A stretch of 15,376 nucleotides of DNA from a virus, in UHGV virus genome UHGV-0041029, one strand, 5' to 3'. A program made the translations under genes and the position numbers. Under the pieces are notes generated by a model. The model was given only the letters and a program-made list of their open reading frames with translations, ran no database searches and had not been told where the DNA came from. This document shows positions 740-5,416 of the stretch, one piece after another. Within the stretch, counting starts at the first letter, position 1. Every line of letters starts with the position of its first letter.

Positions 740-1018
740 ATGGCACGCAACGTAAAATATTACAATTCTGATAATTCGCCCGTTCTTGCCTGCACGCACG
801 AGCGGTATTCTCACGCATTCAAGTCTGAATGGTTCCAGCACCCTCCATGCACTGAAGAGCAGGCTGAATGGATAATTCAGTGTTACCGCAGGCGCGGATA
901 CGAGGTTAAGAAAGCTCTTAGTCTCGACTACCGTCACTGGATAATCTCAGTCAGATTGCCTTACTCCGAACGCCCACCGCGTCCGTCCCGTACATTCCAG
1001 CAACGCATCTGGAGGTAA
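740..1018 (+). CDS. Hypothetical protein (92 aa), translationally coupled to the downstream DUF968 gene
   Basis: GGAG at 727-730 sits 9 nt before the ATG at 740. The stop at 1016-1018 is one base before the GTG start of the next gene, and a GGAGG inside its 3' end serves that gene as RBS. No family recognised. Confidence 0.4.
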   Translation: MARNVKYYNSDNSPVLACTHERYSHAFKSEWFQHPPCTEEQAEWIIQCYRRRGYEVKKALSLDYRHWIISVRLPYSERPPRPSRTFQQRIWR

Positions 1019-1019
1019 C

Positions 1020-2069
1020 GTGCGGGTATTACTTCGACCTGTTCTGGTACCGGAACTCGGGCTGGTGGTCGTTAAGCCGGGCCGTGAATCCATGCCGGTA
1101 TTCCACAATACCCGGGTACTGGTGGAGCCGGAACCGAAAAGCATGCGTAATCTGCCGTCCGGGGTCGTTCCTGCCGTTCGCCAGCCGCTGGTGGAAGACA
1201 AAACATTGCTGCCGTTTTTCAGTAACGCACGGGTAATTCGTGCTGCTGGTGGTGCTGGTGCATTGTCTGACTGGCTGTTGCGCCATATTAAATCCTGCCA
1301 GTGGCCACACGGCGATTATCATCACAGCGAAACCGTTATTCACCGTTATGGTACCGGCGCAATGGTGTTGTGCTGGCACTGCGACAACCAGCTGCGTGAC
1401 CAGACATCCGAATCACTCGAGCAACTTGCTCATCAAAACCTGTCAGCATGGATGATTGACGTCATCGGTCACGCAATAAGCGGTACGCAGGAGCGTGAAT
1501 TATCTCTGGCTGAATTATCCTGGTGGGCGGTCCGCAATCAGGTGGCGGACGCGCTACCGGAAGCGGTATTACGTCGCTCGCTGGGATTACCAGCGGAAAA
1601 AAACTGCTCGGTGTACCGCGAAAGCGACATCGTACCGGGAGAGCAGACCGCCACCAGCATATTGAAACAGCGCACAAAAAATCTTGCACCGTTGCCTCAC
1701 GCCCACCAGCAACAAAACCCATCACAGGAAAAGACGGTGGTAAGCATCACCGTTGATCCAGAGTCTCCGGAATCTTTCATGAAGCTGCCTAAACGTCACC
1801 GTTGGGTTAAGGAGAAATACACACGCTGGGTTAAGACACAGCCGTGTGCTTGCTGCGGTATGCCAGCCGACGATCCGCATCATCTGATTGGTCACGGGCA
1901 GGGCGGAATGGGAACCAAAGCACATGATCTCTTTGTGTTGCCTTTGTGCAGAAAGCATCACGACGAGTTGCATACGGATACCGTGGCATTTGAAGAGAAG
2001 TATGGCTCCCAACTGGAGCTGATTTTTCGATTTATCGATCGCGCGCTGGCAATTGGTGTGCTGGCCTAA
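1020..2069 (+). CDS. ydfU: DUF968-family prophage protein with C-terminal HNH-like Cys/His motif, YdfU-like
   Basis: 349-aa ORF with GTG start. C-terminus carries CACCG...[10 protein letters not shown]...[17 protein letters not shown], a CxxC plus His-rich pattern typical of HNH/DUF968 proteins. Length matches Qin ydfU as recalled. Confidence 0.75.
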
Positions 2070-2619: not shown

Positions 2620-3144
2620 TTATTGTTTAACCCATAATAGTTCATTGACATTGAATCCCAACTTTTGAGCGGTACGCACATAGTCTGCTTTTACATTATC
2701 TGGAATAGTTTGGGTCCTTGCCAGAATCCATAGGTATTCTCTGTTCGGACCACTGATAAGAGCATACTTATACTCATCATCCAGCTTGATTACATTATAA
2801 CCACCATAGAAGGGGCCAAAAAACGAAACTTTCAACGCTGCAGTTTTAGTATCTCCAGTAAAGTATGCTTTACCTTCGCTCTCGCTCCATTTGTTTTTCG
2901 TTGGATCGTATCCACGGTTAAGTACGCGAATCCCTCCGTCGTTCCGTTTTTCATAAGTAGCGCTGATCTGTTCCAGACCACGTTCGAACCAGTTCTCGAG
3001 GCGAGCTATTTCATACCATTTTCCGAGGTAGCGGTTGGCGTCAAAATTTGTAATCGGCTGCACACCTTTAGGTGGTGTCGGGGCCTTACATGCTATAAGA
3101 GTGAAAGAGAGTGCAATGCCAGTCAACACAGGCCATAACTTCAT
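2620..3144 (-). CDS. blc: Bacterial lipocalin Blc-like outer-membrane lipoprotein
   Basis: 174 aa. N-terminal signal with lipobox (FTLIAC-K). Lipocalin motifs shared with E. coli Blc: NFDANRYLGKWYEIAR, GKAYFTG, AALKVSFFGPFYGGYNVI, YLWILART. AGGA lies 8 nt upstream of the ATG on the - strand. Confidence 0.8.
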   Translation of the reverse strand: MKLWPVLTGIALSFTLIACKAPTPPKGVQPITNFDANRYLGKWYEIARLENWFERGLEQISATYEKRNDGGIRVLNRGYDPTKNKWSESEGKAYFTGDTKTAALKVSFFGPFYGGYNVIKLDDEYKYALISGPNREYLWILARTQTIPDNVKADYVRTAQKLGFNVNELLWVKQ

Positions 3145-3336
3145 AATAAATCCTGTACTTTTGATAGTTGAGAGTAAGTATGAAAGATAGATGAGTACGA
3201 CCGATCACTTAAAGAACTTTCCTACTATATTAGGAATAGTCAATAACAGAAAAATTGTCAGTGATGAAGCCAGAAAGGCAATTTAGTCCGTGCACTACAA
3301 AGTTTATGTGTTAATGAATTAGTCAAGGGGGAGGAA

Positions 3337-4296
3337 ATGATAAAAAAACCTGTGATTGGGATCAGCGGTTGTTTGGGCGGTTCTGCTGTTCGTTTTGATG
3401 GTGGTCACAAAAGAGATGACTTTTTAATGGACAAATTAGTGGAATGGGTAACATTCAGACCAGTATGTCCGGAAATGGCTATAGGGCTGCCAGTTCCGCG
3501 TCCTGCTCTACGACTTGTGCGCTCGAAGCAAGGAAATATACGGATGTGTTTCAGCCACGACCAGAATGAGGATGTGACAGAGAGAATGACAGAGTTTAGT
3601 CGTTCTTATATGGACAAATTAAAGGATGTATCGGGGTTTGTGGTTTGTGCTAAATCTCCCAGCTGTGGCATGGAGCGCGTGCGTGTCTATGATGAAAATG
3701 GTAATCGAGGTCGTAAAGATGGAGTGGGACTATTTACGAGCACTTTGATGGAAAAGTTTTCCTGGCTACCGGTTGAAGAGGATGGGCGATTACATGATCC
3801 AGTGCTTCGTGAGAATTTTATTGAAAGAGTTTTTGCTTTGCATGAGCTCAATCACCTTTACAAGGAGAAATTATCAAGAAGAGAGTTATTAGCTTTTCAT
3901 AGTCGTTATAAGCTTCAGTTGTTGGCGCATAGCCAGGCAGGCTATAAAGATATGGGACCATTTGTGGCTGCAATACACGAGTGGGCGGACCTTGAATCAT
4001 ACTTTGAGGTGTATCGTGATAATCTGATGGCGATTCTCAAAAAACCAGCATCACGTAAAAATCACACGAATGTGCTGATGCATATACAGGGGTATTTTAG
4101 TAATTACTTAAGTACACGCCAGCGTAAAGAGTTGAGCGAGGTTATACTTAACTATCGCTTTGGCACATTGCCTCTTCTTGCGCCGTTGACTCTGCTGAAG
4201 CATTATCTGGGTGAGTATCCTAATGATTACTTGCTTACACAGAATTACTTCGATCCCTATCCGGAAGAACTGGCTCTAAGACTGATGGTGAATTAA
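3337..4296 (+). CDS. DUF523 (TudS-like thio-nucleobase desulfidase domain) fused to DUF1722 (YbgA-like); RudS-like putative tRNA 4-thiouridine desulfidase
   Basis: 319 aa, strong RBS gggggagg before the ATG. N-terminal half has Cys in the pattern expected for the TudS [4Fe-4S] ligands (GISGC at 12, PVCPE at 44, VVCAKSPSCG at 104/110). C-terminal half resembles YbgA/DUF1722. Domain calls are by recollection. Confidence 0.65.
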   Translation: MIKKPVIGISGCLGGSAVRFDGGHKRDDFLMDKLVEWVTFRPVCPEMAIGLPVPRPALRLVRSKQGNIRMCFSHDQNEDVTERMTEFSRSYMDKLKDVSGFVVCAKSPSCGMERVRVYDENGNRGRKDGVGLFTSTLMEKFSWLPVEEDGRLHDPVLRENFIERVFALHELNHLYKEKLSRRELLAFHSRYKLQLLAHSQAGYKDMGPFVAAIHEWADLESYFEVYRDNLMAILKKPASRKNHTNVLMHIQGYFSNYLSTRQRKELSEVILNYRFGTLPLLAPLTLLKHYLGEYPNDYLLTQNYFDPYPEELALRLMVN

Positions 4297-4702
4297 CTGT
4301 ATGCGATATCATCTGAAAGTGATGAGTTCCTGTATGCAGGATATTTACAATCGTAAAAACTACGCTATGATGCTCATAGTATCAGTTTTTATAAAAATCC
4401 TGTTCACGCTAAAGAAAACATTGAGATGCAATTTAATGTTGGTAAACATACCAGCCCCAAACGATTTTATTCAATCTGTTTTTATATGAAGATATTTCAA
4501 GTGAATATTAAGAGCATATAATATTATTATTGCACGCAGCTATTATAATATAACAGATTAGTTTAATGATTTGTTTTTTGTGAGTTAAACACATGGTTTT
4601 ATAGTTGTGATGCAATGAGATTTTCCTTATTGTTGAACTGGCGAATATTGATTTTCCACCTATACTTACCTGGTGTAACCCCAATGATATCAGGTGGATA
4701 AT

Positions 4703-5416
4703 ATGCCATACATATGTTCTATCATTTTGGTGTTGAACTCGTTTGGTGTCCGAATTGGTAAAGAAGATATTTTGTTTAAAAAAGGAAATGCTGTCCTCAT
4801 TGAATACAATTTAAAAGATCTTTTTTCGTCAAATACAGATCATCTAATGATCGTAGATGTTGAGGAGAAAACAGTTAATGATTTCTTTAAAAACTACACA
4901 CTCTCACCTTTTTCTGTAAGAAGGTTTTATCCGTCATACTTGATAGTAGAATGTGAAGATTTTTCATTGTTAAAGAACTTGGTTGCATGCTTGAATTGTG
5001 ATAGCAAAACCGTGGATGTAGTTAGAAATCAAATATCACTTGCATGTCTTGCTGTCTTATCTTCAGAGAAAATAGTGCAAAGTTTTTTGTTCGGAAGTCT
5101 TAATAGCTTAGGTTGTAAAGTTAAGGCTATTATTCACTCGGATATCTCAGCGTCATGGAGACTTTGTGATATATCTTCAAGATTATATATGAGCGAGAGT
5201 TTGTTAAAAAGAAAATTAAAAGACGAAGGATTATCGTTTAGTAAATTAATTCTTGAAGAACGAATGATGATGGCGCAAAGATTATTGATCTACAGTAACC
5301 ATACTGTCGGCAAGGTGGCGGGAATATGCGGGTATGACAATGCATCATATTTTGTAAGTGTTTTTAGAGGATATTTTGGTGTGCCTCCGCACCAATATTT
5401 ATCAAGATTTTCTTAG
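4703..5416 (+). CDS. AraC/XylS-family transcriptional regulator, GadX/AppY/YdeO-like
   Basis: C-terminal double-HTH AraC signature (WRLCDISSRLYMSESLLKRKLKDEGLSFSKLI ... GYDNASYFVSVFRGYFGVPPHQY). Gene and upstream 400 bp are visibly AT-rich. Start is probably the ATG at 4703 (aggtgg upstream); the track ORF starts at GTG 4694. Confidence 0.8.
   Translation: MPYICSIILVLNSFGVRIGKEDILFKKGNAVLIEYNLKDLFSSNTDHLMIVDVEEKTVNDFFKNYTLSPFSVRRFYPSYLIVECEDFSLLKNLVACLNCDSKTVDVVRNQISLACLAVLSSEKIVQSFLFGSLNSLGCKVKAIIHSDISASWRLCDISSRLYMSESLLKRKLKDEGLSFSKLILEERMMMAQRLLIYSNHTVGKVAGICGYDNASYFVSVFRGYFGVPPHQYLSRFS

Follow-up and report, generated by a model that had tools for sequence, protein, structure and literature searches.

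A predicted HNH nuclease gene and its small upstream neighbor ahead of Q in a Qin-type lambdoid prophage

The 15,376-nucleotide stretch of viral DNA that was analyzed (hereafter the window; UHGV virus genome UHGV-0041029) is part of a Qin-type Escherichia coli lambdoid prophage, and the two plus-strand genes at 740-2069 were the focus of this work. The second of these, ydfU, encodes a predicted HNH DNA-cutting enzyme whose active-site residues are intact, and the first encodes a 92-residue protein that is not a dedicated partner of DUF968 proteins. The best explanation as a whole, which we consider probable, is that YdfU is a recombination-associated nuclease encoded before Q and that the small ORF is a separate nin-region module, such that 740-2069 would comprise the last two delayed-early (nin-region) genes ahead of the late-gene antiterminator Q. 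An earlier note on this DNA had presented the 92-aa ORF and the DUF968 gene as a dedicated two-gene unit; this proposal was abandoned because most YdfU loci lacked the small ORF, which was also found in front of other gene families.

Gene order and genomic setting

Bases 400-2500 of the window occur with 100% identity in many complete E. coli chromosomes, and the RefSeq annotation of the identical loci lists rem, a hypothetical protein, ydfU (as a DUF968 domain-containing protein), and an antiterminator Q family protein. The gene order is hokD-rem-(92 aa)-ydfU-Q, all on the plus strand. The hokD-like toxin ORF at 23-205 (Pfam HOK_GEF, E 2e-23; hokD in the identical E. coli locus) provides context only, and rem (422-673; phrog_340 and the RefSeq annotation of the identical locus) is the gene upstream of the pair. 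A GGAG Shine-Dalgarno sequence at 729-732, read from the sequence and the same in K-12, is located 7 nt upstream of the ATG of the 92-aa ORF (phrog_1212), which extends over 740-1018 from ATG at 740 to TAA at 1016-1018. The ydfU gene at 1020-2069 (GTG at 1020, TAA at 2067-2069) encodes a 349-aa DUF968 His-Me finger protein and is followed 17 nt later by the Q-family antiterminator gene at 2087-2464 (Pfam Phage_antitermQ, E 8e-51, together with the annotation). Part or all of the 2.1-kb stretch was matched in 5213 of 5426 complete E. coli genomes, with at least 80% coverage in 385 of these. Both genes are ordinary for a lambdoid prophage and have already been catalogued.

The YdfU of the K-12 Qin prophage (b1560) was ∼91% identical over the same 349 aa, with rem upstream and a Q-family antiterminator downstream as in the window. 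The same 92-aa ORF and an identical junction are present upstream of the K-12 gene, but the ORF is unannotated there, and the downstream Q differs (a 130-aa antitermQ protein in the window versus the 250-aa YdfT in K-12). Farther along the window, the region between Q and the lysis genes (2620-4296) carries apparent cargo, namely a Blc-like outer-membrane lipocalin encoded on the minus strand (2620-3144) and a 319-aa YbgA-family protein that combines 2-thiouracil desulfurase and DUF1722 domains (plus strand, 3337-4296). An AraC-type regulator at 4694-5416 comes after the YbgA-family gene.

The neighborhoods of 80 YdfU loci were surveyed in a collection with one genome per species; their proteins were 39-99% identical to that of the window. 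A Q-family antiterminator was encoded downstream of YdfU in 70 of the 80 loci, and RusA was encoded on the same strand within 2.5 kb in 43. The slot before Q is taken by NinG/Rap in lambda and by YbcO-RusA in mEp237. The earlier note had suggested a nuclease-based module acting in replication, recombination, or exclusion; a recombination or DNA-processing role is likely from the genomic placement, but the idea of a dedicated pair did not hold. Some YdfU loci with 50-92% identity were situated on bins labeled Veillonella parvula (L263, JAGZPX010000007.1), Geobacteraceae, and Actinomycetes (L268, L289), which are almost certainly mis-binned contigs of enterobacterial prophages.

Domains and relatives of YdfU

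The HMM search bore out the identification of the downstream product as a DUF968 protein, with Pfam DUF968 (PF06147) scoring 258.4 bits against a gathering threshold of 27.8 and residues 160-346 aligning to model positions 1-171. PHROG 96, termed "HNH endonuclease", spanned all of YdfU, and the first 135 residues also matched the stand-alone phrog_11007. The AlphaFold (AF2) model, made with 31 diverse homologues in the alignment, had a mean pLDDT of 86.8 and was composed of three parts. The N-terminal domain (residues 1-158; 1020-1493), delineated from the alignments and predicted with pLDDT of 80-95, was of the alpha/beta type, with C93 and C118 invariant and the motif CQ...LCW(H)(H/C)DN on a beta-hairpin-helix element; the domain probably binds zinc. 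Searched against Pfam and PDB sequences, the N-domain alignment returned only noise, and no relatives were found among BFVD folds. The middle region (residues 159-257; 1494-1790) consisted of short helices and a linker, with pLDDT below 50 at residues 228-239, and covers the first half of the Pfam DUF968 model. The C-terminal His-Me (HNH) domain (residues 258-349; 1791-2066) was predicted to form a beta-beta-alpha-metal finger in which C276, C279, C310, and H314 would be the zinc ligands by position (a CCCH site) and H287/H288, D303, and H318 the catalytic or metal-binding residues.

All of these zinc-site and active-site residues were invariant in an alignment (A8) of homologues that were 36-81% identical. 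The fold, catalytic histidine at the end of beta-1, metal-binding residues, and zinc site that characterize the His-Me finger/HNH superfamily were thus all found in YdfU, and the HNH-like motif and nuclease fold put forward in the earlier note were upheld by the predicted fold, the invariant Cys/His set, and the PHROG 96 match. A PDB profile search with full-length YdfU gave no match at E values up to 1. In the 50% representative library, several proteins (P0264, P0311, P0312, P0293, and P0245) carry the N-terminal 150-300 residues of YdfU joined to tail-tip, tail-fiber, capsid, or portal domains. These fusions were rejected as a functional architecture, and they look like chimeras left by deletions in decayed prophages or like artefacts of assembly. 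Both DUF968 and DUF1364 (YbcO) had been assigned to His-Me finger group 7, and a recombination hypothesis for the DUF968 family had been published with that assignment (Jablonska et al. 2017, PMC5714182). The statement that the function of DUF968 proteins is unknown therefore stands for experimental work, with literature searches finding no experimental paper on YdfU or any DUF968 protein, but it overlooked this assignment and hypothesis.

The C-terminal 90 residues of YdfU were most similar to P1 Ref and to YbcO of DLP12. Ref is a RecA-dependent HNH nickase of 186 aa (PDB 3PLW, PF16786) with a basic disordered N-terminus, whereas in YdfU this is replaced by a folded Cys/His domain of 158 aa plus a linker; with a score of 15.2 against a cut-off of 26.9, YdfU was not placed in the Ref family RecA_dep_nuc (PF16786). 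YbcO of prophage DLP12/phage 82 (PDB 3G27, DUF1364) is the nuclease finger alone, in ∼96 aa. The lambda protein NinG/Rap (PF05766), a branch-specific endonuclease that acts as a structure-specific enzyme on branched DNA, is a His-Me finger nuclease encoded in the same nin-region slot before Q, but it belongs to His-Me group 24, unlike YdfU in group 7. YdfU had no Pfam match to PF05766, and the hhalign comparison, confined to the CxxC motif, gave a probability of 6.5%. Genes of the NinG type come after the small ORF in its mEp237-type copies.

P1 PdcB (post-doc gene B) was a full-length homologue of YdfU, with 26% identity over 349 aa, that retained the N-domain motif as CQ...LCWHHDN but had its HNH histidines replaced (HH to PY; H314 and H318 lost). 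Its gene (L259 2405-3448) follows phd-doc and is not situated before Q, and the 66-aa product of the upstream gene pdcA shows no relationship to that of the small ORF. Loss of the HNH histidines as in PdcB was also seen in the representatives P0325, P0347, and P0379. The retention of the N-domain motif in PdcB without the HNH histidines suggests that the conserved role of the family may reside in the N-domain rather than in catalysis. PhiNM1 Gp16 and phiETA Orf20, which combine an Orf/NinB-like domain with HNHc_6 (PF16784), resemble the proposed YdfU in being phage early HNH nucleases tied to recombination. YdfU did not group with these Orf(NinB)-HNH fusions, with an HNHc_6 score of 24.1 against a cut-off of 26.6 and no lambda Orf/NinB-like domain detected, and the DUF968 label that was given in 2014 to the Gram-positive Gp16/Orf20 proteins does not transfer to it. 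PhiNM1 Gp16 is a RecA-stimulated HNH nickase (PMC12817073).

In the explanation that we favor, YdfU would nick or cut DNA recombination or replication intermediates during lytic growth, filling the slot that is held by NinG/Rap or YbcO in other lambdoid phages, usually beside RusA. The C-terminal finger would serve as a zinc-stabilized His-Me (HNH) nuclease, and the N-terminal Cys/His domain would probably confer substrate or partner recognition. RusA is a Holliday-junction resolvase, and the frequent presence of YdfU alongside it makes YdfU itself unlikely to be a resolvase. The PF16786 and HNHc_6 scores below their cut-offs, as well as the PdcB relative without the HNH histidines, count against this explanation. 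The searches that found no informative relatives for the N-domain or the small protein, the His-Me nuclease genes that come next in many small-ORF lineages, and the non-significant junction hairpin (both described below) weigh against it too.

The small gene and its junction with ydfU

The 92-aa ORF is a real gene, beyond a chance ORF. Its residues 27-92 matched positions 1-66 of the phrog_1212 profile (E 5.3e-36), and it had no NCBIfam family and no Pfam family at E below 0.1. Close relatives formed 142 protein clusters in Escherichia and Shigella, with identity extending down to ∼66% among the 120 listed, and a profile search from distant members yielded 401 clusters (Salmonella, Citrobacter, Klebsiella, Enterobacter, Yersinia, Edwardsiella, and others), all named hypothetical. 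Cluster lengths in both sets were 66-92 aa; outside Escherichia the protein has 65-69 aa, and the Escherichia form carries an additional 26 residues at the N-terminus. Pairwise Nei-Gojobori analysis of five Escherichia alleles gave dN/dS of 0.10-0.17 for the conserved core (codons 27-92; 818-1015) and 0.4-1.4, for informative pairs, in the variable N-tail (codons 1-26; 740-817), consistent with strong purifying selection on the core and C-terminal tail, as judged from these alleles. AlphaFold predicted residues 1-23 to be disordered and residues 28-75 to adopt a beta-alpha-beta-beta fold with pLDDT above 90, followed by a basic, proline-rich tail of lower confidence with the end QQRIWR, in agreement with the split in dN/dS. 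No informative relatives of the small protein were found. NinF was suggested by position, and P1 PdcA by position and its 66-aa size; both were rejected with hhalign probabilities of 0.09% and ∼0.1%, respectively, and comparisons with lambda NinF, NinE, and other named Nin proteins failed to establish membership by sequence similarity. In our preferred explanation, the product would be a beta-alpha-beta-beta protein with a basic tail, encoded by an independently mobile nin-region module.

In K-12 MG1655, the 92-codon ORF is intact between rem and ydfU (NC_000913.3, ∼1644306-1644584, minus strand; locus L002 4307-4585), and its differences from the window copy are mostly synonymous. The 346-bp rem-ydfU gap of NC_000913.3 is devoid of any annotated feature, whereas the ORF is given as "hypothetical protein" by RefSeq in other strains; it thus appears to be a missed gene in the MG1655 reference annotation. 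A literature search with the K-12 peptide string found nothing. A terminator upstream of ydfU was reported to be among the strongest Rho-dependent terminators in vivo (J Biol Chem 2022, PMC9160355). If that site is in the rem-ydfU interval, it would overlap the 92-aa ORF, which would imply weak translation of the ORF in the lysogen.

The junction of the two genes was found from the sequence and the ORF list to be as the earlier note had described it, with the stop codon at 1016-1018, C1019, and the GTG at 1020 leaving a one-base gap. The GGAGG at 1011-1015, within the codons for W91 (TGG) and R92 (AGG), was likewise confirmed as the likely Shine-Dalgarno sequence of ydfU; it lies 4 nt from the GTG, a slightly short but workable spacing. 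The GTG start is supported because M1 of homologues from other genera aligns there (invariant in A8) and because the early codons exhibit only synonymous changes relative to K-12. This coupling geometry, with stop and start codons a few nucleotides apart and the Shine-Dalgarno sequence inside the upstream ORF, was shared by all Escherichia variants. The last Trp codon, together with the codon after it, provides the Shine-Dalgarno sequence of the following gene (TGG-AGG, TGG-GAG, or TGG-GGG) in the Escherichia, N15, mEp237, and Klebsiella forms, and in mEp237-type phages the junction GTGGGGGTGAGCATGGCNAA was identical whether a NinG, YbcO, or zinc-ribbon gene follows. Since the last codons of the small ORF contain the ribosome-binding site of the next gene, the ORF would also act as a translational leader for ydfU in Escherichia. 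N15 genes 40 and 41 (locus L083 3001-4136) flank a 66-aa homologue of the small ORF that is missing from the annotation, and its end, TGG GAG TAA, supplies the Shine-Dalgarno sequence for gene 41. The product of that gene resembles a 3'-5' exonuclease of the DnaQ type with a zinc ribbon fused at its C-terminus; homology of gp41 to YdfU was considered and rejected after BLASTP found nothing.

A predicted RNA hairpin, which pairs 987-993 with the GTG region and 995-1000 with the Shine-Dalgarno sequence, was conserved in eight Escherichia-type sequences. It was no more stable than shuffled controls (z −1.37), and the eight sequences showed only one-sided changes with no compensatory pairs. Translational coupling of the 92-aa ORF and ydfU is plausible from the geometry, and the hairpin has neither statistical nor covariation support. 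The most conserved DNA of the region (around 987-1026 of the window) comprises roughly the final 30 nt of the small ORF and some 40 nt at the beginning of ydfU, and it remains conserved even where the small proteins of different alleles differ by 30%. It can fold into a hairpin that would occlude the Shine-Dalgarno sequence and the GTG. Given the absence of covariation, this conservation might just as well stem from a recombination "linker" where two mosaic segments meet.

Distribution of the two genes and alternative readings

A survey of the small ORF covered 246 loci from IMG/VR, phage records, and the window, which collapsed to only 10 clusters at 90% identity. The next gene was of the YdfU type in 164 loci (Escherichia and Klebsiella subfamilies), NinG/Rap-like (∼206 aa) in 60, and YbcO-like (∼105 aa) in 19; the other three comprised one locus with a zinc-ribbon protein of 148 aa, that of N15 with the DnaQ-like gp41, and one broken case. 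Four more distant phages carried a NinG-like gene (Edno5), an unknown 175-aa ORF after a 48-nt gap (PY54), a Dcm methylase gene (Erwinia vB_EhrS_59), and an ORF for an acidic 75-aa protein (Enterobacter vB_Ecl_MII_001) in this position. A His-Me nuclease gene was next in ∼10 of the 14 lineages sampled. The small ORF often, though not always, precedes a nuclease gene, and a looser functional link between the two is conceivable on this basis, though unlikely.

From the side of YdfU, a homologue of the small ORF was found within 700 nt upstream in 10 of the 80 species-level loci; it was adjacent in seven and absent in 70. The adjacent cases were from Escherichia and Shigella at 86% identity or above, plus one contig labeled Veillonella that is probably contamination. 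The gene before ydfU in other loci was antirepressor-like (41), RusA (10), a DNA methyltransferase, or another type, mostly with ATGA overlaps. Close junctions are normal in this operon, so the tightness of the junction alone carries little information. The pair nevertheless persisted in all Escherichia/Shigella variants examined as well as in a Klebsiella lineage, and Escherichia alleles whose small proteins were only 66-73% identical retained the 1-nt gap, with differing upstream genes and with RusA and Q following. The expectation that the 92-aa ORF would be conserved beside DUF968 was therefore realized in Escherichia/Shigella and a Klebsiella lineage but not in the 70 species-level loci, and the two genes did not co-occur across lineages as an obligate two-gene nuclease system would. 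The adjacency is real, locally conserved, and lineage-specific, and the small ORF and YdfU are separate modules with recombination at the gene boundary between them, a usual feature of lambdoid mosaics.

The small protein might instead be a functional partner (a regulator, inhibitor, or targeting subunit) of the nin-region His-Me nucleases YdfU, NinG/Rap, and YbcO, with their ratio fixed by translational coupling; we regard this as unlikely. Nine of the 10 de-replicated small-ORF clusters mainly precede YdfU, NinG-like, or YbcO-like genes, Edno5 does likewise, and the next gene of N15 also appears to encode a nuclease (DnaQ-like). Conservation of the junction with its embedded Shine-Dalgarno sequence, the strong purifying selection on the core and tail, and the persistence of the pair in Escherichia although both flanks vary all speak for such a partnership. 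However, it fits poorly with the 70 species-level YdfU homologues that are without the small ORF, as well as with lambda NinG (preceded by NinF, which is unrelated to the small ORF), DLP12 YbcO, and P1 PdcB, which have other upstream genes, and with the Dcm methylase, acidic 75-aa, and 175-aa ORFs that come next in the Erwinia phage, the Enterobacter phage, and PY54. Moreover, genes of unrelated nuclease families come after small ORFs whose proteins are as much as 92% identical (NinG next in one locus, YbcO in another), an arrangement that speaks against a co-evolved interface; with ∼14 lineages, the effective sample is small.

A more specific proposal, to which we give little credence, is that the phrog_1212 protein is a hitherto unrecognized shared accessory factor of these three nucleases, with its tail (PxPSRxxQQRIW) docking onto the nuclease or a host recombination protein to set when and where it cuts and with the ratio fixed by coupling; or, in a related version, that the N-domain of YdfU and PdcB is a new DNA- or protein-recognition module that outlives the loss of HNH function. 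Directly upstream of the small ORF in mEp237 is a gene for a 199-aa protein (L084 2399-2998, mEp237_050) that by eye is DUF1367-like. The Erwinia phage vB_EhrS_59 encodes a depositor-annotated DUF1367 protein (HHpred match to lambda NinB; L247 854-1303), and three genes, in ∼1.2 kb, separate it from the small ORF downstream. The order recombination mediator, small ORF, and nuclease may thus occur in at least one phage and could hint at a shared pathway.

We also considered, by analogy, that YdfU could be a Ref-like host-directed nuclease that works with RecA filaments and cuts the host chromosome or stalled forks for phage replication or host shut-off, rather than a phage recombination enzyme. 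P1 Ref and Gp16 of the Staphylococcus aureus phage PhiNM1 offer precedents, yet YdfU scored below both Pfam cut-offs (PF16786 and PF16784), has neither the basic disordered N-terminus of Ref nor the NinB-like domain of Gp16, and gave no match to 1PC6; the consistent synteny with RusA and Q fits a nin recombination module, and we judge the host-directed role to be quite doubtful. That the pair is a toxin-immunity, exclusion, or anti-phage defense module is very improbable, for although a nuclease gene with a small, tightly coupled ORF resembles a toxin-antitoxin layout and hokD (and, in K-12, relBE) is nearby, neither protein matched a PADLOC family, which argues against a known defense role, the two genes do not form an obligate pair, other phages have the small ORF in front of non-toxic genes, and across many genera ydfU belongs to the core early operon ahead of Q, not to a moron or accessory site.

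With the nuclease prediction already published and the gene pairing lineage-specific, our preferred explanation, a recombination-associated YdfU nuclease with a separate small module ahead of it, is unsurprising to a phage specialist. The targets of the DUF968/DUF1364 nucleases nonetheless constitute a gap in the well-studied lambda nin recombination module, beside Orf, Rap, and RusA, and identifying them could also account for the toxicity of the silent prophage genes of this region under Rho inhibition. As a by-product, the analysis revealed that the MG1655 annotation misses an intact 92-codon gene under purifying selection. YdfU and the ORF that precedes it are present in most sequenced E. 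coli, as counted by matches to part or all of the 2.1-kb stretch.
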